From the NCBI GenBank assembly GCA_963422525.1, contig OY730226.1, positions 1,368,524 through 1,432,523 of the forward strand: a stretch of 64,000 nt of DNA, given 5' to 3'. Below, piece after piece: positions 25,393-57,020 of the stretch (positions are counted from its first letter, which is position 1; each line of letters opens with the position of its first letter). The position numbers and the translations under genes are program-made. The notes under the pieces were generated by a model, which was not told where the DNA came from, did not search any database, and worked only from the letters and a program-made list of their open reading frames with translations. This stretch comes from Dehalococcoidia bacterium. Its GTDB lineage: Bacteria; Chloroflexota; Dehalococcoidia; Lucifugimonadales; JADFKI01.

Positions 25393-25514
25393 TCCTTTGG
25401 TGGTTCTGGCTAGATGGCCCCACCCGTTCCCATCCCGAACACGGAAGTGAAACATCTCAGCGCCGACGATACTGCACCCGCAAGGTTGTGGGAAAATAGG
25501 TCACTGCCAAGGGG
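25393..25514 (+). rRNA. rrf: 5S ribosomal RNA, not linked to 23S/16S in this window
   Basis: Universal 5S blocks CCCACCCGTTCCCATCCCGAACACGGAAGTGAAAC and AGCGCCGA.GATACT, and a terminal helix pairing CCTTTGGTGG with CACTGCCAAGGG. Ends are accurate to about 3 nt. Followed by CTTTTTC. Confidence 0.9.
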
Positions 25515-42109: not shown

Positions 42110-42183
42110 GCCCCAGTGGCGCAACTGGCAGCGCAGCCGACTTGTAATCGGCAGGTTAGTGGGTTCGAGTCCCCTCTGGGGCT
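42110..42183 (+). tRNA. tRNA-Thr (anticodon UGU)
   Basis: Manual cloverleaf: acceptor GCCCCAG/CTGGGGC, D stem GCGC/GCGC, anticodon stem GCCGA/TCGGC with loop CTTGTAA. The T arm GTGGG-TTCGAGT-CCCCT has one mismatch. Confidence 0.85.
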
Positions 42184-42306
42184 TTTCTCTATTACAGCAT
42201 TGCATCGGCTTTCCGCGATGCGAGTTCGGCGTCCGAACAGGGCGCTTTTGCTTGGATTGGGCAGGATGCCTGTGATAGACTGAAAATAGTTGTCCTGTAG
42301 TCTCCT

Positions 42307-42393
42307 GGAGGGATGGGAGAGTGGCTAAATCCACCAGACTGTAAATCTGGCGCCCGACGGGCTACGCAGGTTCGAATCCTGCTCCCTCCACCA
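42307..42393 (+). tRNA. tRNA-Tyr (anticodon GUA), long variable arm, CCA encoded
   Basis: Acceptor GGAGGGA/TCCCTCC, anticodon arm CCAGA-CTGTAAA-TCTGG, T arm GCAGG-TTCGAAT-CCTGC, 3' ACCA. Confidence 0.93.
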
Positions 42394-42442
42394 TCCAAGT
42401 GGTAAGTTCACCGAAAAATCAAGCATCACAAAATCAACATTG

Positions 42443-42515
42443 GCCCACATAGCTCAGTAGGTAGAGCGCGTTCTTGGTAAGAACGAGGTCAGCAGTTCGA
42501 GTCTGCTTGTGGGCT
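42443..42515 (+). tRNA. tRNA-Thr (anticodon GGU)
   Basis: Acceptor GCCCACA/TGTGGGC, TAGCTCAGTAGGTAGAGC D arm, anticodon arm CGTTC-TTGGTAA-GAACG, T arm AGCAG-TTCGAGT-CTGCT. Confidence 0.93.
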
Positions 42516-47460: not shown

Positions 47461-48720
47461 TCAGCCCCGCGCGATGTAGGGTATCGTCTGGGGTCCCTCT
47501 GGCAGCGCGCATATCCTTGCATCCGCCCCGCATTCAGCTATTGCGTCCTCTATGCTTTCCACAGGCGTAAGGTGCGCTTCCGCTGTCTGCTGCGCCGTCA
47601 GGAACCTCGACTTGATATAGACTGCAGCCTTCATCTGAATCTGCGCCTGAACCTGCGCCTGCCACTGGTCGTGCCGCTCATAGCCCGGCTCGTTTATCAT
47701 TGCCAGCAGCTCCGACGGGCTGCTGCATGATGCGAGAATTCGCCGATACTGTCCGTGCTCAGGCATGCCCTCCGAGCACTCCGCCGCACAGATAATACGC
47801 CCTCCATCCTTTACGACCTGCGCCGCCGCCGACATCCCCTTTACAGCCTGATATAGGTTCTGGTCGAGAGGATAGCCGCTGTTCGTCGTAATCACCACAT
47901 CGAATGGTTCTTCCACCGGCTGCATCGCTAGCCGCTCGGCGACAGCGCACGCCGCCGCGTGGACGCCGAACAGTTCGCCCGCATACACGCTGGTAATCCG
48001 CTGTTCGCGGTTTATCGTTACATCTACCGAGAAATCCACCCCTGACATCTGAGCAATCTCCCTGATACTGTCGTGTATCGGATTGCCTACGGTAACGCCG
48101 AAGCGAGCATCAGGATGCCCTATCATTGCCGCATCGTGCAGCCGCATTATCGTTCCGAAGCCTGCAAGCCCCGGCGCGACCATCTTCGGCCCCCCGCTGA
48201 AGCCGGCGAAAAAGTGCGGCTCAACGAACCCTGTCGTTATGCGGATGTCGCTCTCCACCCATCTCCGATCTAGGCGAACCTCGATACCTGTCTTCGTGCT
48301 GCCAATACGCTCCAGCGCGCCCTCATCGAAGCCGTCGTGATTGACTATCTTGTACCTGTTGGCTACTTCTTTGCCAAGCATCTGCGCTATCTCTGCGTCA
48401 GTATTGGCGCGGTGGGTGCCCGTTGCGATGAGGATGGTTATGTTTTCGCGCGACACATGCCGAAGCTCGCCCAGCAGTATAGGCAGCAACAGTTTGCTTG
48501 GCATCGGGCGCGTAATGTCGCACACCGATATGGCTACGCTCTGCGTGGGCTTTACCACCTGCCGCAGCGGTGGAGCGCCGATGGGATTGCGCAACGCAGT
48601 CAGGATTGCGCCTTCTGCGTCCGGCAGCCCCGGCACATAGGTCGGCTCTATGACCGTCGTGCGTTCAGCCGGCAGGTCCACTTCCAACCCTTCGCGCCCA
48701 TACGCCAGTCTGACTTTCAT
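47461..48720 (-). CDS. larA: LarA-family nickel-pincer (NPN)-dependent 2-hydroxyacid racemase/epimerase homologue
   Basis: DUF2088-type N-terminus (MKVRLAYGREGLEVDLP), ATGTHRANT block, FSGGPKMVAPG containing the Lys that tethers NPN in characterised LarA. The start lies 3 nt after the stop of the upstream M20 peptidase gene. Confidence 0.8.
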   Translation of the reverse strand: MKVRLAYGREGLEVDLPAERTTVIEPTYVPGLPDAEGAILTALRNPIGAPPLRQVVKPTQSVAISVCDITRPMPSKLLLPILLGELRHVSRENITILIATGTHRANTDAEIAQMLGKEVANRYKIVNHDGFDEGALERIGSTKTGIEVRLDRRWVESDIRITTGFVEPHFFAGFSGGPKMVAPGLAGFGTIMRLHDAAMIGHPDARFGVTVGNPIHDSIREIAQMSGVDFSVDVTINREQRITSVYAGELFGVHAAACAVAERLAMQPVEEPFDVVITTNSGYPLDQNLYQAVKGMSAAAQVVKDGGRIICAAECSEGMPEHGQYRRILASCSSPSELLAMINEPGYERHDQWQAQVQAQIQMKAAVYIKSRFLTAQQTAEAHLTPVESIEDAIAECGADARICALPEGPQTIPYIARG

Positions 48721-48723
48721 ACG

Positions 48724-49806
48724 CTAGTCCTGCCCTCGTATCAGCGCCTCGCACAAATGCGCCGTGTCCACCAACTCCGGTATGACTACATATTCCCTGA
48801 CCGTATGCATGCCATGGTCCGCCATGCCCACCACCACAGCGCTCATCCCTCTCAGCCGGAATACATTGCCGTCGGTGCCTCCGCCCGAAGGTCGAAAGTC
48901 CGGCTCCAGTCCCAACCCGCGCAGCGCGCCGGTAACTCGCGCCGTGGCAGCATCGTCATCGTTCAGTGTGTAAGTCTCAAACTCGGTGTGCAGATGGTCA
49001 TCAAGCTTTGCTTCGGGGAACATCTGCCGCACATCATCCAACGCCTCCGAAATTTGCACGCGGATGTCGTCGAGCGTCTCTATGTTGCGGCTTCGAAACT
49101 CGCCTTGAATGATTGTCGTCTCTGCGACGGTGTTGCGAACCGAACCGCCCTCGATTGTGCCGACATTAAAGGTCGTTTCTTCGTCGAGCCGTCCTTGCGG
49201 CAGCCTCGTTATCAGCTCCGCGGCTATGCGTATCGCCGACAGCCCCTTCTCCGGCTCGACGCCGGCGTGGGCTGATCGCCCGGTAACTTCGATGTTGAAG
49301 CCGATGTATGTCGGGCTTGACGATGTAATCTGCGACACCGGTCCCTCACCGTCAAACACGATGGCTTCCTTAGCTGTGAGCATCGAGAAGTCGAGGTTGC
49401 GGGCGCCCACAAGCCCGATCTCTTCCTCGCGTGTGAACGCGACCTCGATGCCCGTATGCGCCACGCCATCTTCATGCACGGATTCCAGCGCCTCCAGGAT
49501 GGCAGCGACGCCGCACTTGCAGTCGCCGCCGAGTATCGTCGTGCCGTCGGATTCGATGCGGTCGCCCGATACTCTGGGCTGTACGCCGCGTCCCGGCTCC
49601 ACCGTGTCCATGTGCGCCGACAGCAGCAGCGGATCCGCCCCGCCGTCGTTGGCTATCAAGTTGCCATAAGCGTCACGCCGCACGGTAAAGCCCAAATCTT
49701 CAAGACGGCGCGTCAAGTCCTGCGCCATCGTCTCCTCTTCTCCCGAAGGGCTGTCAATCCGCGCAAGTTCTGTGAATGTCCTCACCAATCGGTCCCTGTT
49801 TATCAT
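48724..49806 (-). CDS. M20/M25/M40-family metallopeptidase
   Basis: MINRDRLVRTFTELARIDSPSGEE, AHMDTVEPG metal-ligand block, GGDCKCG. The ATG at 49806 follows TAGGAGAAG; the track start at 49884 is less likely. Confidence 0.85.
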   Translation of the reverse strand: MINRDRLVRTFTELARIDSPSGEEETMAQDLTRRLEDLGFTVRRDAYGNLIANDGGADPLLLSAHMDTVEPGRGVQPRVSGDRIESDGTTILGGDCKCGVAAILEALESVHEDGVAHTGIEVAFTREEEIGLVGARNLDFSMLTAKEAIVFDGEGPVSQITSSSPTYIGFNIEVTGRSAHAGVEPEKGLSAIRIAAELITRLPQGRLDEETTFNVGTIEGGSVRNTVAETTIIQGEFRSRNIETLDDIRVQISEALDDVRQMFPEAKLDDHLHTEFETYTLNDDDAATARVTGALRGLGLEPDFRPSGGGTDGNVFRLRGMSAVVVGMADHGMHTVREYVVIPELVDTAHLCEALIRGQD

Positions 49807-49895
49807 CGCTTCTCCTAAGTATCTCTTGCTCCCGCTCATAGTCTTGCTAGCTTTGCTCGTAAAATCGCCTTTGTCACAAAGCATAAAGCGTAGCC

Positions 49896-52800
49896 CTACT
49901 CTGACAGCGTTAGATGGTTGCCGTCCCGCTTAATCCGCTCATCCTCGAGCATACGGTCTAAAATCTCCCCTAGTTTGTAGTCAATATAACCAGTAACCCT
50001 GCGAAAACCCAGCAGATTAGCGGCATTCCTTATCGCTTCTTCACGGTCAATCCCAAAAGAACGCTCCACAACCATCCGCACGGCTTCGGCGATTTCTTCA
50101 GGTGAGATATACTCAATATTCTTTCGTTCCCGCTCAAGGTTGCTTCTGTCGCGCACGAGCGGCCGTTCCATATCGTTAGCCCATATGAAGTACCCCTTAC
50201 GGATTACCTGTTTGCGGCGCACGGCATCCTCAATTGCCCAGTATATCTTCCCTTGAATCTTTGTGCCGACTCTTGCTACACCTGCTGCGTTAGCGATGCG
50301 TCGGATGACCTCATCATCCTGCACCGGACTTTCTACGCGCACCACCTCAATGACGGGTTCGATTAGCCATTCGACAGGCGCGTCACCAAGTTCATAGGAG
50401 CCGATATGGACATTCGGCTGCGCCAACCGATAAAGAGGAATATCGGGAACAAAGCTTTCTTGCTTGACATCCGCGCGCGAAATAACCGACTCGTTCGGTA
50501 TAGGCTTTGCAGATGATTTGCCAGCGTTCTGCCGCGATGTCAACGCATCTTCTATCGCCGCCGTCGCGCGTTTCAATTCGCGCTCCGGGTTGTTGAACCA
50601 GTCGGTACTCCAGACGCGGTGTATCCGCCATCCCAGCTTCACCAGCGCCTTCTCTCTGATTCTGTCGCGGTCGCGCGCCGACCGCGAACTGTGATAGGTT
50701 GCGCCATCGCACTCGATACCTAAAACATACCTGCCCGGTCGCTTAGGGTCCACTACGCCAATATCAACGAAGTACCTGCTTGAAGCCACCTCATCGTGAA
50801 TTTCGTACCCATGCGAACGCAGTCTGCTGGCAACCTCTATCTGGAATGGCGAATTTACCTCCCGCCCTGACATCATGGGCATATCGGGCATTTCGCCCTG
50901 CTCCGCATACGCTAGAAACTTCTTGAAGGCGCGCAAGCCATGTCCACTATTCACGGTCACCCTGATGTCATCGGCGTGAAGGTTAGTGAACACATGGCAG
51001 CGTCGCTTTGCTCTGCTGATGAGCACATTAAGACGTCTCTCGCCGCCATCCCTGATGAGCGGGCCGAAGTTTTGCAATACACGCCCATCGGCATTGCGCC
51101 CGTATCCCACACTAATGAAGATGACATCGCGCTCGTCGCCCTGCACATTCTCCAGATTCTTTATGAAGAAAGGTTCGTTCGGATGGTCGTCGTTGAAGAA
51201 TTGTTCGAGAGCGTTGTCTTGGCGTCTAAGCGCCTCTAGCGCGTCCTGCACCTCATCCCGTTGGCTGCTGCTGAATGTGGCAACTCCCAGAGACAACTTC
51301 GGATGCTGGCGAGCATGCCTCATAACCGCCTCTGCCACCTGTTGGGCTTCCTCTCGGTTTCTTCCGCTGCCGCCGTACTTGGTATCCAGATAGTGATACT
51401 GCAACCCTAAATCATGCTTTTCTTTGTCCGGGCTGGGAAATACTACCAGACGATTATCGTAGAATTCGCTGTTGGATACCGCAATTAATGACTCATGGCG
51501 GCTGCGATAGTGCCAGCGCAGCATACTTGAGGGAGCCCCCTGTGCGGAGAACAAGCTCAGAATGCTTTCCATATCTGCGGTCGCAGCGTCGTCGCTGTCA
51601 TCATCTTGGTTGACTGCATTGAAGAAGTCGGTGGGAGGTAATTGCTTATCATCGCCCACCACAACCGCCTGTTTGCCGCGAATCAGCGCGCCCAGCGCAT
51701 CCACAGGCTTCACTTGGCTTGCCTCATCGAACACCACTATATCGAACTTGACGCTGCCAAGCTTCAGATATGTCGCTACCGAAAGCGGGCTCATCATAAA
51801 TACAGGCTTGATTGCTTGTACGGCATTTCCTGCTCGTTCCATCAACTGTCGTATGGAAAGATGCCGCCGCCGCTTCGCAATCTCCCTCCTTAGAATACCT
51901 AGCTGCCCTCCACCGCCGTACTTAGGCAGCGACTCCCAATGGACATGACTGACCCTTGTGCGGTTGTTCGCCAGCGCCAACTCATCCATCTCGCGGAACT
52001 TATCAATTATTTGCTGGTGAAAATCGCCGTTGAAGCCTACTAGACAGTCTCTTTCCTTAAGCGCGCGGGACAGTATGGCGCTGTAACGCGCCTTTTCAAA
52101 GCACGCTGATAGATACTCGGACGCTTCTGGCCATTCCCAAGCCAAATCTACAACCTCAGCCATATCCTCATCCACGACATTAGACGCGGCGGCGTTAAAC
52201 CCTGCCATGTCGCGAATTGTGTTGACACCACTTTGCCATTCTGCAATAACACCCTTTTGCCTCATAAATGGCATGGCGTTCAGCCCGTCGGGATTGCCGA
52301 ACTGCTTTGAGTTATCTATTTTCAGCAAGGTTTCAAGATTAGCGATATGCTCTGCATGAGATGCGCGGGCGGATTGCGCCTGCTTCCGAAAATCATTCAC
52401 TTTGCTGGCGTTAATCTTATCGCTCATATCGAAAGCGAGCGTAGAATCGACATTTCCGTTATCAACATCCTCAAGCAGCGCAAGCGCCCACTCAGCGATG
52501 CGCTCTACGGCTTTCCAGTCCGAGCCTTTCCAGCCTGAATATTCGAATTGCCACTTCTGGCCAAAGACTTCTTTTGCGGTTGGCGATAGCTTCGCTACAT
52601 TCCGTCGCGTTTGCTGTTCGTCCAGTATTGCCTCGGCAAGCGCTATCTGTCGTTCGATATTCGTATCGGAGCATTCGATTTTGATGATGGCGCGATAATT
52701 TGACAAAGCGTCGAGTGTCTGAATACGAAGGGTATTTACCCTAGCAGGGTCCCACTCAGCGCTCATATCGAAAGCGAGCGTAGAATCGACGCTTCCGTTG

Positions 52801-55289
52801 TCAACATCTTCAAGCAGCGCAAGCGCCCACTCAGCGATGCGCTCTATGGCTTTCCAGTCCGAGCCTTTCCAGTCTGAATATTCGAATTGCCACTTCTGGC
52901 CAAAAACCTCTTTTGCGGTCGGCGATAGCGTCGCTATATTCTGTCGCGTTTGCTGTTCCGCGAATATTGCCTCGGCAAGCGCTATCTGTCTTTCAACATT
53001 GAAAGCCTGTTCGCCATGACACAAGTCCATCATCTGCTTCCTAGAGTGGCGGTATCCGGAAGAAAAGAGCCTTCCCCAAAAGCTGCGTCCGGTTGTAGAA
53101 AGTATGCGATGCGCTTCGCTCACATCAGCTTCCCAAGCGTCCGGCTTGAGCGCCGCATCGTATTTGGAATGGAGTTGTTCCAGGTGTTCCTGATAGCTCA
53201 GCAATTTCTGTAACTCACGGCGACAGCCGTGTGACTTTAGCGCTCTCAGATTGACGCCTTCGATGTTAGGCGCTTGTGCGGCGCGTTCAGCGAGGGGAAG
53301 TATCGCTTCGACCTGCCTGATGTCCTCGGGCGCGTCCAACCCTAACGCCTCGCTGAGTGCGCGCGCTAGCTCCGCTATAGTATTTAACGCCCCAACATCT
53401 CCTGGTGGAGCATACCAATAAAGAGCTGCTAATTGATTCCTAGCGCAGAGATATTTGGGAGAAATGAGACTTCTCCAAAGAACGCTCTCAGTGTTGGAAA
53501 GTATGCGATGCGCTTCGCTCACATCAGCTTCCCAAGCGTCCGGCTTGAGCGCCGCATCATATTTTTTGGAATGGAGTTGTTCCAGGTGTTCCTGATAGCT
53601 CAGCAATTTCTGTAACTCACGGCGACAGCCGTGTGACTTTAGCGCTCTCAGATTGACGCCCTCGATGTTAGGCGCTTGTGCGGCGCGTTCAGCGAGGGGA
53701 AGTATCGCTTCGACCTGCCTGATGTCCTCGGGCGCGTCCAACCCTAACGCCTCGCTGAGGTGACGAGCGGCATCTTTCAATGTATCAATAGATACTGCGG
53801 CAGCGGTGAGCCCTTCGCGCAAATCTTCCTCTTGTTCGGGCGTTACTAATCGCAGCTGCGAACCCCGAAACATGTGCTCCTTTGGAACACCTACACTGCC
53901 CAAAAGCGTTTGAATCTCGGACACCGCGCCCATTTTCCGCTGAAAGTCTGCGTTCGCCCAAGAAGCGATATTTGGTATCTGCACACGGGGCAGACGTACA
54001 CCATTTTCGTCTGCTTCAATTCTGCTGAGTTCGCCATATGTACGATAGGGGGACACACCCGTGTCTCCCACCGGCGTATTCACCGCTGCCGCATACCTGT
54101 TCAGCCTGTCCCGATGCTCCGTAAGGGTAATGAAATCATCTTCGATACCCTCCATACTCGGCTTACCCAGCTCAAGCGTTTTTCCCAGATCGTCTATAAC
54201 TGCCTTCTTTTGCGTCTTATGGCTGTGCAATTCAAGGCAGGCAACACCAATGCCGATGCCGTCAAGCCTGCGTTTCACCACCTCCAGCGCTGCCATCTTC
54301 TCCGCAACGAAAAGCACGGTCTTTCCTTGCCCGATACTCTCCGCAATGATGTTCGTGATCGTCTGAGATTTGCCTGTGCCAGGCGGCCCCTGAATGACCA
54401 TGTTGCGCCCGCTGTCCACATCGTGTATCGCCTTCGCCTGCGACGAATCGGCATCCACGACGTGGTGCGCATCATCAGGCTTGAGATGATCGTCAAGAAA
54501 GTCGCCTTCGCCAATCTCTGAGGGCGCTTCTTGGAATCCACCCTCTAGCAGGGCGTGAATGATGTGATTTCCCGGCAGACCTCCGTTTTCAGGCCAGGAA
54601 TTAGGGTCCAAGTCTCTGTACATCAGTAGCTTGTTGAACGAAAAGAAGCCTAGAACTACGCTGTTGTAGTCAACAGCCCAGCGTTTCATCCCCTTTATGC
54701 TGCGTGAAACATCAGTGAAGTAGGCATCAATATCTATATCTTCCGCATCAGCCTCCTCTTCATCCGCCAATCCGGGAATCTCAATGCCAAAATCCTGACG
54801 AGCTTTCTGAATGAACGCTATGTTCGCCCCCAATTCTTCACCGGTGTACATAACCTTGAACCCGGCGTTAGCATTATCCCGCTCAAGCCGGACAGGAACC
54901 AAGATGAGTGGCGCTTTACGCTCCTGCTCGCTGGAATCGGACTCATACCAACTCACCATTCCTAGCGCCATGAACAAGGTGTTGACGCCCTGCTCCTGAA
55001 TCAGCGTATTGGCGTCATAGTAGGTTCTGAGAAGACGGCGTCCTAATTGAGCAGAAGTTTCTGCGGTGCGGATGCGGTTATTTCTGCTGGACTTAGACTC
55101 AACATCAAGAAACTGCATCGGTGGATTATTCCGGAGGAGCGTCTCGAAAATCTTGACAGGCTTAGCCCCCACGGCCTCGACGCCCTTAGCCTTTAACAGC
55201 TTGTAATTCAGCAGACGATTCCGAAGGCTCAAGTCTAGCAATTCTGTTCTTGAACGCTCAATCTTCTCTTTGATGGAGTCGGTCGTCAT
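49896..55289 (-). CDS. giant DUF4011-like / Upf1-like SF1 helicase / Vsr(MTES_1575)-like endonuclease / DUF3320-like fusion protein
   Basis: - N-terminus: ELLDLSLRNRLLNY and KAPLILVPVRLER (DUF4011-like).
- Walker A GPPGTGKS (nt 54366-54389).
- About 875 aa of insertion.
- Walker B VVFDEASQ (about 51714-51737), then VVVGDDKQLPP, QGDERDVIFIS and RLNVLISRAKRR.
- Nuclease fold: YVLGIECDGATYHSSRSARDRDRIREKALVKLGWRIHRVWSTDW.
- A ~300-aa tail.
- I prefer the ATG at 55289 (GGAAGGAG 8 nt upstream) over the track start at 55424. Confidence 0.9.
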   Translation of the reverse strand: MTTDSIKEKIERSRTELLDLSLRNRLLNYKLLKAKGVEAVGAKPVKIFETLLRNNPPMQFLDVESKSSRNNRIRTAETSAQLGRRLLRTYYDANTLIQEQGVNTLFMALGMVSWYESDSSEQERKAPLILVPVRLERDNANAGFKVMYTGEELGANIAFIQKARQDFGIEIPGLADEEEADAEDIDIDAYFTDVSRSIKGMKRWAVDYNSVVLGFFSFNKLLMYRDLDPNSWPENGGLPGNHIIHALLEGGFQEAPSEIGEGDFLDDHLKPDDAHHVVDADSSQAKAIHDVDSGRNMVIQGPPGTGKSQTITNIIAESIGQGKTVLFVAEKMAALEVVKRRLDGIGIGVACLELHSHKTQKKAVIDDLGKTLELGKPSMEGIEDDFITLTEHRDRLNRYAAAVNTPVGDTGVSPYRTYGELSRIEADENGVRLPRVQIPNIASWANADFQRKMGAVSEIQTLLGSVGVPKEHMFRGSQLRLVTPEQEEDLREGLTAAAVSIDTLKDAARHLSEALGLDAPEDIRQVEAILPLAERAAQAPNIEGVNLRALKSHGCRRELQKLLSYQEHLEQLHSKKYDAALKPDAWEADVSEAHRILSNTESVLWRSLISPKYLCARNQLAALYWYAPPGDVGALNTIAELARALSEALGLDAPEDIRQVEAILPLAERAAQAPNIEGVNLRALKSHGCRRELQKLLSYQEHLEQLHSKYDAALKPDAWEADVSEAHRILSTTGRSFWGRLFSSGYRHSRKQMMDLCHGEQAFNVERQIALAEAIFAEQQTRQNIATLSPTAKEVFGQKWQFEYSDWKGSDWKAIERIAEWALALLEDVDNGSVDSTLAFDMSAEWDPARVNTLRIQTLDALSNYRAIIKIECSDTNIERQIALAEAILDEQQTRRNVAKLSPTAKEVFGQKWQFEYSGWKGSDWKAVERIAEWALALLEDVDNGNVDSTLAFDMSDKINASKVNDFRKQAQSARASHAEHIANLETLLKIDNSKQFGNPDGLNAMPFMRQKGVIAEWQSGVNTIRDMAGFNAAASNVVDEDMAEVVDLAWEWPEASEYLSACFEKARYSAILSRALKERDCLVGFNGDFHQQIIDKFREMDELALANNRTRVSHVHWESLPKYGGGGQLGILRREIAKRRRHLSIRQLMERAGNAVQAIKPVFMMSPLSVATYLKLGSVKFDIVVFDEASQVKPVDALGALIRGKQAVVVGDDKQLPPTDFFNAVNQDDDSDDAATADMESILSLFSAQGAPSSMLRWHYRSRHESLIAVSNSEFYDNRLVVFPSPDKEKHDLGLQYHYLDTKYGGSGRNREEAQQVAEAVMRHARQHPKLSLGVATFSSSQRDEVQDALEALRRQDNALEQFFNDDHPNEPFFIKNLENVQGDERDVIFISVGYGRNADGRVLQNFGPLIRDGGERRLNVLISRAKRRCHVFTNLHADDIRVTVNSGHGLRAFKKFLAYAEQGEMPDMPMMSGREVNSPFQIEVASRLRSHGYEIHDEVASSRYFVDIGVVDPKRPGRYVLGIECDGATYHSSRSARDRDRIREKALVKLGWRIHRVWSTDWFNNPERELKRATAAIEDALTSRQNAGKSSAKPIPNESVISRADVKQESFVPDIPLYRLAQPNVHIGSYELGDAPVEWLIEPVIEVVRVESPVQDDEVIRRIANAAGVARVGTKIQGKIYWAIEDAVRRKQVIRKGYFIWANDMERPLVRDRSNLERERKNIEYISPEEIAEAVRMVVERSFGIDREEAIRNAANLLGFRRVTGYIDYKLGEILDRMLEDERIKRDGNHLTLSE
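52421..53000. repeat. intragenic tandem duplication B within the helicase gene (two 241-bp cores, ~92% identical)
   Basis: 52421-52661 versus 52760-53000, period 339 nt (113 codons). About 19 mismatches in my manual alignment. Confidence 0.9.
53098..53759. repeat. intragenic tandem duplication A within the helicase gene (two ~260-bp cores, ~99% identical)
   Basis: 53098-53357 versus 53497-53759. My manual alignment finds 2 substitutions and one 3-nt indel. The offsets of 399 and 402 nt are both multiples of 3. Confidence 0.9.
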
Positions 55290-55621
55290 AAGCCCCGCTC
55301 CTTCCATCCTGTCCAATATACGCTCCGGCATGTTCGTTCGTGGTGAGCCTGTTCTGAGCTTGTCAAAAGGGAGCCGTCGAACCTGATAGCATTCCCTTTT
55401 TAGGCGGTAAAGCCGTCCCTCCACCCTTGATAAGGGAAGGCCTGGATTGAGGATGACTTGCTATTCAACCACCCGATTCGCAACCCTATCATCAAATCGC
55501 CCAGTATCATAAATCCTGCCCATCCATGTTAATCTCAGATATTGTATTTTGTACAGACGGCGTGTCAAGGGTTGGAACTTCACGCCGCTACGGGTTAAAC
55601 TACACCCAGCGTAGATGAGGT

Positions 55622-56386
55622 ATGGCAATGACCCTTCAGGCTGAACAACAATACACTACGATGATCCGCGATCTGCCCCAGGACGAGCGACCGCGCGAGC
55701 GTCTCCAGCGATACGGCCCCAACCATCTGAGCAACGCCGAACTTATCGCTATCCTGCTGCGCGTGGGATCGACCGGCGAGAGCGTGCTGAACCTGTCGGC
55801 GCGAGTCCTTGCCACCTATGGCGGTCTTGGCGGCGTGGCGCGCGCCTCACACGGCGAATTATGTGACCTGCATGGCATCAGCGACGCCAAGGCATGCCAA
55901 ATTTTGGCGGCGCTCGAGCTTGGACGGCGTCTCACATCGCTCCAACCCGAAGACAGAGCGGTAATTCGCTCGCCCCAAGATGTATTCAACCTACTCGGCG
56001 CCGAAATGGGCTTCCTCGATCAAGAACATCTTCGCGTGTTGCTGCTGAACACCAAGAACGAAGTGCTGGCAACCCACGAGATTTACAAAGGCAACGTAAA
56101 CTCGGCGGTGGTGCGCGTCGCAGAAGTGATTCGCCCCGCCATCAGAGCGAACTGCCCCAATATCATCGTAGTGCACAATCACCCTTCCGGCGACCCAACT
56201 CCAAGCCCGGAGGACATTCTGGTAACGCGCCAAATTAACACATGCGCCGATATGATGAGCATCAAACTACTCGACCATGTTGTAATAGGCAACCAGCGAT
56301 TTGTCAGCCTCAAGGAAAGAGGGCTAGGATTTAGCGGCGACGCTCCCGCTAACATTGATATTGGCTTGGCAGCAGAAAGAAAGTAG
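55622..56386 (+). CDS. radC: RadC-family JAB/MPN-domain protein
   Basis: UPF0758 N-terminus ([33 protein letters not shown]) and JAMM motif [14 protein letters not shown]. Confidence 0.9.
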
Positions 56387-56395
56387 GCGATTGCT

Positions 56396-56695
56396 ATGTC
56401 TGAAAGAGAAATGGGCGATATAGGCACGGAGTTTCAGTTTGAAGACGCCGACATAAGTGTTTGGGACCTGGCGCTGGAGCCTGGCCAGTCCAGCGCATGG
56501 CACCATCACACTAGGCGCTATGTGTTCATCGTAACGCGCCCCGGCACGCTCAAAACAGAGTACGAAGACGGCTCTACATCGGTGAGTAATCTTAGACTTG
56601 GGCAGGTGGTTAAGGGCAAGAAAGACGCCGTGCATCGCGTAACTAATGTAGGTGAACAGCTGTACAGCAACGCCATCATAGAGTTGCAGGATTGA
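56396..56695 (+). CDS. small cupin-fold protein
   Basis: 99 aa. LEPGQSSAWHHHTRRY...HRVTNVG resembles the two cupin motifs. Confidence 0.6.
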   Translation: MSEREMGDIGTEFQFEDADISVWDLALEPGQSSAWHHHTRRYVFIVTRPGTLKTEYEDGSTSVSNLRLGQVVKGKKDAVHRVTNVGEQLYSNAIIELQD

Positions 56696-56714
56696 AGCAA
56701 AGGCGAGGTGAGCA

Positions 56715-57020
56715 ATGTCCGGAGAAAACAAGCCTCTTGGCGAAATCGCCACTCATGTCTTGTTCGAGAACGACAAGGTGAAGGTCTGGAATCTGATTGT
56801 AGAGCCGGGCGATGCCAGCGATTGGCATATGCACGAGCGCGACTATGTAACCGTAGTGGTCGAAGGCGAAGGGCTGGTTGTAGAGTATGACGACGGCGCC
56901 CAAGAAGACAGCCCGTCTGAAGTCGGCGTATGGCGATTCCATGGCGACCATAGGATTCACCGCGTAGTGAACAACAGGGACACGCGGTACAAGAATGTTC
57001 TGATAGAACTGAAGGCGTGA
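56715..57020 (+). CDS. small cupin-fold protein, tandem paralogue
   Basis: 101 aa, collinear with the previous gene (VEPGDASDWHMHERDY...HRVVNN). Confidence 0.6.
   Translation: MSGENKPLGEIATHVLFENDKVKVWNLIVEPGDASDWHMHERDYVTVVVEGEGLVVEYDDGAQEDSPSEVGVWRFHGDHRIHRVVNNRDTRYKNVLIELKA

Follow-up and report, generated by a model that had tools for sequence, protein, structure and literature searches.

The 64,000-nucleotide (nt) stretch of DNA analysed here (the window), from contig OY730226.1 of a Dehalococcoidia bacterium, carries on its minus strand a helicase-nuclease gene (positions 49896–55289) in which two nearly identical segments of about 260 nt lie in tandem. The mechanically called open reading frame (ORF) extends to a GTG at 55424 (49896–55424, minus strand). 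The ATG at 55289 is likely the start codon, judging from the surrounding sequence: the Shine-Dalgarno sequence GGAAGGAG is found 8 nt upstream, and the resulting chain of 1,797 amino acids (aa) equals in length that of the orthologue P0001.

The predicted protein displays an N-terminal DUF4011 domain (aa 61–207, positions 54804–55244; Pfam PF13195, E-value = 5e-37) followed by a Walker A motif, GPPGTGKS, located in the sequence at aa 346–353 (54366–54389). The Walker B region, VVFDEASQ, is found much farther along the chain (aa 1230–1237, 51714–51737). It is followed by a second RecA-like helicase domain, AAA_12 (aa 1287–1481, 50982–51566; PF13087), a restriction-endonuclease-fold domain of the MTES_1575/DUF559 (Vsr-like) type (aa 1527–1624, 50553–50846; PF18741, E-value = 8e-34) and DUF3320 (aa 1684–1724, 50253–50375; PF11784). 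All of these features are on the minus strand. All five Pfam families score above gathering thresholds, and the helicase is of the Upf1-like superfamily 1 (SF1) type. The fifth family, AAA_11, is split, its C-terminal match (aa 1212–1265) falling at the Walker B region. The 884 aa from Walker A to Walker B form an all-helical insertion that splits the first RecA-like domain.

Two types of module, also on the minus strand, are present in the insertion, in the order A1-A2-B1-B2. Module A1 (aa 539–672, 53409–53810) and module A2 (aa 673–806, 53007–53408) each consist of a position-specific head, a core that appears to have been converted (53497–53759 in A1, 53098–53357 in A2) and a position-specific tail. 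Directly downstream of A in the protein are module B1 (aa 807–919, 52668–53006) and module B2 (aa 920–1039, 52308–52667), whose cores (52755–53000 and 52416–52661, respectively) form a second tandem pair of 246 nt with 91% identity and a spacing of 339. BLASTP with masked segments places the A copies at aa 545–668 and 679–801 and the B copies at aa 809–919 and 922–1039; unmasked self-BLASTP of the whole protein returns the identity match only. A Pfam search at E-values up to 10 gives no family for the A or B modules.

The A cores comprise the central 87–88 codons of modules A1 and A2. An earlier reading made from the DNA letters alone (the sequence-only reading) had counted two substitutions and one 3-nt indel between the 260 nt of 53098–53357 and the 263 nt of 53497–53759, and the count is exact on global alignment (the substitutions are G/A and T/C), with MAFFT in agreement. 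The edges of the cores are sharp, as identity in the adjoining 30-nt intervals is only 9–21 of 30 positions. A direct-repeat search of the A region yields one family of 207 nt (97% identity, spacing 402) and another of 131 nt (82% identity, spacing 399), and so reproduces the offsets of 399 and 402 nt, each divisible by three, on which the same reading had remarked. The diverged tail peptides it had listed are both present in the minus-strand ORF, and its placement of the repeats between Walker A and Walker B agrees with repeats at aa 545–801 and motifs at aa 346 and aa 1230. A 38-mer of the A core occurs exactly twice in the window and has no match in any of 100 shuffles. Tandem Repeats Finder, run over 51.5–54.5 kb, reports neither the A nor the B pair; the arrays have fewer than two copies and the flanks are diverged.

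A pair of this kind could be produced by an assembler that duplicated one segment, or that collapsed or expanded a repeat. Near-identical 260-nt repeats are difficult for short-read assemblers. The sequence-only reading had raised the same worry, and it is answered here by an independent assembly, not by read mapping. P0001, the best database match, is encoded on L001, a 102-kb contig of a different ENA assembly which shows the same gene neighbours as the window. The L001 gene differs from that of the window at 82 of 5,394 nt and at 47 aa (98.5% identical, i.e. 1.5% different over the gene) but agrees with it in length and in its two-A, two-B layout. In a four-way nucleotide alignment all three differences between the A1 and A2 cores (GAG/GAA, the AAA codon and TAT/TAC) are common to the window and L001; in addition, L001 carries four private changes and the window none. 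The sequence between the cores is unique and the frame stays open. Homologues on contigs with names of the long-read-assembler type (e.g. P0023, on a 2.5-Mb contig) also show the two-A/two-B layout, together with a core tract of about 190 nt that is 100% identical. An assembly artefact appears very improbable on these grounds, and the near-identity of the A cores is, to judge from the independent assembly, biological. Since all three copy-distinguishing differences are shared with L001, the homogenisation of the cores predates the split between the window and L001.

The A modules have heads and tails whose history differs from that of the cores. Flanks of A1 in the window resemble the A1 flanks of P0003, P0005–P0007 and P0011, and flanks of A2 likewise resemble A2 flanks. 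For example, the A1 tail of the window is 66% identical to the A1 tail of P0003, as against 37% across positions. P0003 is 64% identical to the window protein over the whole chain, and the orthology of the flanks holds across homologues of 58–64% identity. Within a single protein the identity between A flanks is 23–50% in every homologue compared. The identity between A cores of a single protein is 100% in the window, 98% in P0001, 89% in P0023 and 80% in P0003; in P0005–P0007 and P0011 it is 40–44%. The tree of the flanks shows a split between all A1 and all A2 copies (bootstrap 90%). In the tree of the cores the window and P0001 copies fall together (bootstrap 100%), as do the two copies of P0003 (bootstrap 100%), and the copies of P0005–P0007 are still separated by position.

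These comparisons bear on a very recent partial duplication of about 260 nt in the window lineage, the tails being unrelated sequence. Such an event would yield cores that are 99% identical at in-frame offsets, as found. However, each head and tail of A1 and A2 has its homologue, position by position, in the flanks of P0003, P0005–P0007 and P0011, as the flank split shows, and cores with as little identity as those of P0005–P0007 and P0011 indicate that the two-copy state long predates the identity of the cores. A recent duplication is thus highly unlikely as the origin of the pair.

The rates of synonymous (dS) and nonsynonymous (dN) substitution between the repeat units, a comparison suggested in the sequence-only reading, were computed by the Nei-Gojobori method. 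The A cores give dS 0.05 and dN 0, and the A tails give dS 1.4 and dN 0.68. The A core contains about three differences over 60 synonymous sites and the flanks are saturated; for core versus flank synonymous sites the Fisher test gives p = 2e-13. Much stronger purifying selection on the core than on the flanks, with no conversion at all, would be in keeping with the finding that, across the family, no part of module A is better conserved than the core. Selection on the protein is contradicted, however, by synonymous sites that are nearly identical in the core and saturated in the flanks. The core also varies freely between species (51–61% aa identity to P0003), and core trees group paralogues by genome. 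This explanation is therefore improbable in the extreme.

The A1/A2 duplication is very probably ancient, with a core that was homogenised by intragenic gene conversion and a module number that was changed by recombination in relatives. By this account the heads and tails would have diverged and would have been maintained position-specifically, and the 260-nt core of one A copy would have been overwritten by the other copy shortly before the split from the 98.5%-identical relative. The window and L001 orthologues show dS = 0.026, and because the A core dS of 0.05 is greater, the conversion would be slightly older than the L001 split. The sequence-only reading had offered either a very recent partial duplication or ongoing gene conversion. 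Gene conversion is favoured by the discordance of the two trees (bootstraps of 90% and 100%) and by a dS of 0.05 as against at least 1.4, and the same data speak against the very recent duplication; "ongoing" goes beyond the evidence for the window lineage, in which no conversion is detectable in either A or B after the window/L001 split. This last result and two further points weigh on the other side of the balance: a comparison of the core with both types of core, A1 and A2, from lineages that show no conversion does not single out a donor, and the copy number in the sample is known from the assembly, not from reads.

The apparent conversion tracts are not the same in different lineages. The tract is about 260 nt long in the window, about 180 nt in P0003 and about 190 nt (at 100% identity) in P0023, with boundaries that differ among the three lineages, and P0005 shows no tract. 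The B cores display a dS of 0.26 (B1 versus B2), and the B1/B2 pair very probably underwent the same conversion process earlier. Both B copies of the window and of L001 contain a 5-aa insertion (FEYS[D/G]WKG) which is absent from every other homologue examined. A lineage-specific insertion present in both copies is another mark of conversion.

Homogenised cores of this kind serve as substrates for unequal homologous recombination, which in related lineages has very probably added or removed exactly one module in frame. The genes for P0002 (locus L003) and P0003 (locus L002) are syntenic and about 94–95% identical, and their alignment shows a single clean gap of exactly 399 nt. P0002 has three A copies. 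In the middle copy the head and core are of the A2 type and the tail is of the A1 type, the switch lying inside the shared core, and unequal crossing-over would be expected to yield just such a chimera. The duplicated flanks of P0002 differ at 6–8 positions, which argues against a simple assembly loop. Losses appear in other lineages. P0037, with one A and one B, is about 82% identical to the two-A/two-B proteins P0020 and P0015, and P0032, also with one A and one B, is 78% identical to the two-A/two-B protein P0025; each shows two in-register deletions, of which one falls in A and the other in B. In a neighbour-joining tree of the C-terminal 790 aa the one-A/one-B and two-A/two-B proteins are interleaved, and P0037 and P0032 are placed within a clade of two-A/two-B proteins. 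It must be held against these cases that P0002 comes from a short metagenomic scaffold and that the copy-number tree is a rough neighbour-joining tree.

The in-frame gain or loss of about 133 aa that the sequence-only reading had predicted is thus seen in relatives (the 399 nt of P0002/P0003, and P0037 and P0032), not in the window lineage. Repeat copy number in orthologues, which it had proposed to compare, varies among the relatives and is alike in the window and L001. A JGI metagenome scan with the 38-mer of the core gave no match and recovered no population variants.

It is a general phenomenon that tandem repeats within a gene evolve in concert through gene conversion and unequal crossing-over. 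The present case shares with it paralogous cores that cluster within a genome, flanks that cluster by position, synonymous sites that are identical, a chimeric extra copy at the crossover point, and length changes in whole periods. It differs in that two different modules are each present in only two copies, and in that conversion is limited to a core the size of a subdomain. A further difference is that two module types change in number together even though they are separate repeats.

About 200 proteins and genome loci were read as module order strings with improved unit hidden Markov models (HMMs). The order AB is found in 122 sequences and AABB in 31. Larger arrays are few: AAABBB and AAABB are each found twice and AABBB once. 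In five sequences no module is detected and the insertion is only about 492 aa. The A and B counts co-vary, with n = 0–3. The order ABAB was never seen among these proteins and loci; a single tandem duplication of an A-B unit was considered as the origin of AABB and rejected, since it would give ABAB. In the remaining sequences only one A, only one B or neither is detected, with insertions mostly of AB length (about 620–660 aa), and we read most of them, from these lengths, as probable distant homologues missed by the HMMs.

The five sequences with the insertion of about 492 aa (P0052, P0053, P0060, P0113 and L007) lack the A core (about 87 aa) and the B core (about 56 aa) in two separate gaps and retain heads and tails. 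They amount to a natural "zero-unit" variant. Three sequences have unbalanced counts, i.e. AAABB in P0002 (L003) and P0098 and AABBB in L023. These could be transient intermediates or, for short scaffolds, assembly problems. A clade of proteins of about 1,800 aa (P0055, P0063, P0064, P0068, P0072–P0076, P0078, P0079, P0082, P0085 and P0091) has a further A-B unit, likewise contiguous, ahead of DUF4011 at the extreme N terminus, in addition to that of the insertion.

An AlphaFold2 model of aa 310–1500 (1,191 aa) shows an all-helical insertion with helices of 15–30 residues (mean predicted local distance difference test (pLDDT) of 78, predicted template modelling score (pTM) of 0.44). Foldseek against the PDB gives no significant match for this model, SMC-type proteins being listed first with an E-value of about 1e-3 and a template modelling (TM) score below 0.1. 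The contiguous A2-B1 stretch (aa 673–921), modelled separately, gives a pLDDT of 93.5 and a pTM of 0.85. For this unit, too, Foldseek against the PDB finds no significant match (best E-value = 0.087, TM 0.1–0.2). The SMC/Rad50/MukB ATPases also have a Walker A motif, a long helical excursion and a Walker B motif in succession, but the analogy is topological only. There is no significant structural or sequence similarity, and in the SF1 helicase described here the helices are bundled, at 15–30 residues each, and are not continuous coiled coils.

An A module may fold together with the following B module as one compact helical unit, so that A1-A2-B1-B2 would be nested, with an inner A2·B1 unit placed within an outer A1·B2 unit. 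On balance this arrangement is slightly more likely than not. Support comes from the lack of ABAB orders, the balanced AB strings, the two gaps of the zero-unit variants, the A2-B1 model and the N-terminal A-B units. On the opposite side stand the three proteins with unbalanced counts, the pTM of only 0.44 for the 1,191-aa model, and the alignment used for the A2-B1 model, which was drawn from one-A/one-B proteins and is biased to a packed unit. In this reading selection would keep the numbers of A and B equal. Our guess is that the number of units governs how large a helical arm or sensor surface on the helicase core is, or how far it reaches.

By its domain set and Walker motifs the window gene is a DUF4011 helicase-nuclease of the Hhe/ProA/PDC-S37 superfamily, an assignment made from profile matches. 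The best PADLOC model is PDC-S37, a candidate single-gene defence system in that resource, which matches with 1,877 bits (E = 0) over three stretches, the best of them aligning aa 922–1838 with profile positions 640–1544 of 1,550. PDC-S37/ProA and the window protein have in common, and in the same order, DUF4011, a split AAA_11 with a long insertion, AAA_12, the MTES_1575 nuclease and DUF3320. The profile length of 1,550 fits one A and one B; the window protein has two of each and is about 250 aa longer, and the match is broken into pieces because of the extra A and B modules. The NCBIfam equivalog model NF058533, "anti-phage protein ProA", gives 1,485.5 bits in four stretches, just under the curated cut-off of 1,500. 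The ProA scores of relatives straddle this cut-off (P0023, 1,568; P0003, 1,513; P0013, 1,496; P0004, 1,457). The single-stretch matches of relatives to the ProA profile (1,903 positions) begin at about 342–354, which leaves roughly the first 350 positions unmatched in all relatives tested, and probably also in the window protein, whose best stretch is 961–1903.

Hhe likewise joins, in a single gene, an SF1 helicase with DUF4011 to a Vsr-like nuclease. However, the window protein scores well under the Hhe cut-off (NCBIfam NF042953, 1,020.6 bits versus 2,000) and the PADLOC Hhe model gives 748.7 bits versus 1,877 for PDC-S37; the window protein belongs to a related subfamily and not to Hhe itself. 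E. coli Hhe has been reported to be active against lambda, T3, T7 and PhiV-1, and a nuclease-site mutant is inactive. By family annotation the window gene's subfamily has a putative anti-phage role; E. coli Hhe is the one protein with reported activity. In the literature library that was searchable, no paper on this subfamily was found under ProA, PDC-S37, DUF3320 or Hhe structure. A DUF4011 gene is reported as a core gene in P. aeruginosa.

In the PDB, sequence relatives are found only for the helicase core, namely IGHMBP2 and Sen1 (4b3g, 5mzn). These matches are to the helicase cores of other families, and no solved full-length structure of the family was found. The core is like that of the Upf1-like SF1B helicases IGHMBP2, Sen1 and Dna2, and Dna2 and IGHMBP2 also match weakly by fold. 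IGHMBP2, Sen1 and Dna2 have insertions in the first RecA domain as well. The insertion described here differs from these in its length of 884 aa, in being all-helical and in being made of A/B modules that have no Pfam match and no significant PDB fold match.

The helicase-nuclease family spans many bacterial phyla and includes one archaeon (L075, on the Methanimicrococcus hongohii chromosome). Among genomes, the window gene has its nearest relatives in metagenome-assembled genomes of Chloroflexota, SAR202, Dehalococcoidia and Poribacteria. A genome-contig scan with an alignment gave 80 distant loci, used for organism names and module counts only; a genome-contig scan with the single window protein gave no close relative.

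The processes described here are well known, being ordinary concerted evolution, and the gene is in a known though poorly studied family. What is added is a rule, A^nB^n, for the modules of the insertion domain. The locus offers a clean, well-controlled case of intragenic gene conversion in which the near-identity reflects biology rather than a fault of assembly. Proteins of the Hhe/ProA/PDC-S37 type are common across bacteria, and their insertion is made up of two kinds of helical module, neither of them annotated, which change in number together, from 0 to 3, by recombination. The length classes of about 1,350, 1,550, 1,800 and 1,900 aa in the family are copy-number states, not separate families. 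For structural and defence biologists, the variants form a natural deletion/expansion series for probing the role of the insertion, and the module limits given here provide precise domain boundaries for constructs.

In the most extended form of the argument, the insertion of 600–1,100 aa would be a nested stack of paired A·B units, A^nB^n (n = 0–3), the number of which is reset by recombination while conversion keeps the cores recombinable. An evolvable "arm length" or sensor repertoire would be selected in phage conflict, and an unpaired A or B would be selected against. This is speculative, and we consider it rather unlikely as a whole.

Housekeeping genes surround the helicase gene: RadC, cupin-like ORFs and ApbA lie to one side of it, and the other side has an M20 peptidase and LarA. 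The RadC-like gene is divergent from the helicase gene and is followed by two cupin-like ORFs of about 100 aa (55622–57020, plus strand); the M20 peptidase and LarA are downstream (47461–49884, minus strand). The order RadC, two small ORFs, helicase gene, M20 peptidase is kept in L002 and L003. The RadC-helicase-M20 order is conserved in L001–L003, and therefore the locus looks, by this synteny, vertically inherited rather than part of a defence island. LarA follows the M20 peptidase in the window and in L001. In L002 it lies beyond an inserted acetyltransferase gene, and the L003 scaffold ends earlier.

Conversion and copy-number change may be real but adaptive, as a contingency-type length switch in which the module number is tuned under phage pressure. 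The family is annotated as anti-phage, Hhe has reported activity, and gains and losses recur in several lineages. In addition, dN/dS between the window and L001 is 0.47 over the whole gene and 0.64–0.65 in the A+B region (0.65) and the C-terminal third, which is high for a helicase. These ratios are below 1, however, and no within-population length variants were found, the window and L001 genes being of equal length and the JGI metagenome scan being empty. The locus is also syntenic and flanked by housekeeping genes, and the anti-phage role of the subfamily is putative. A switch of this type seems doubtful.

Between the nuclease domain and DUF3320, at about 50340–50489 (aa 1646–1695), 11 of the 82 differences from L001 are clustered in 150 nt, and most of them change the amino acid. 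Either a hypervariable patch or a short tract of recombination could account for this cluster. Elsewhere in the window a 5S rRNA gene is found at 25396–25512, with no 16S or 23S rRNA reported in the 64 kb, so the 5S rRNA gene may be unlinked. A cluster of three tRNA genes is present at 42110–42515.

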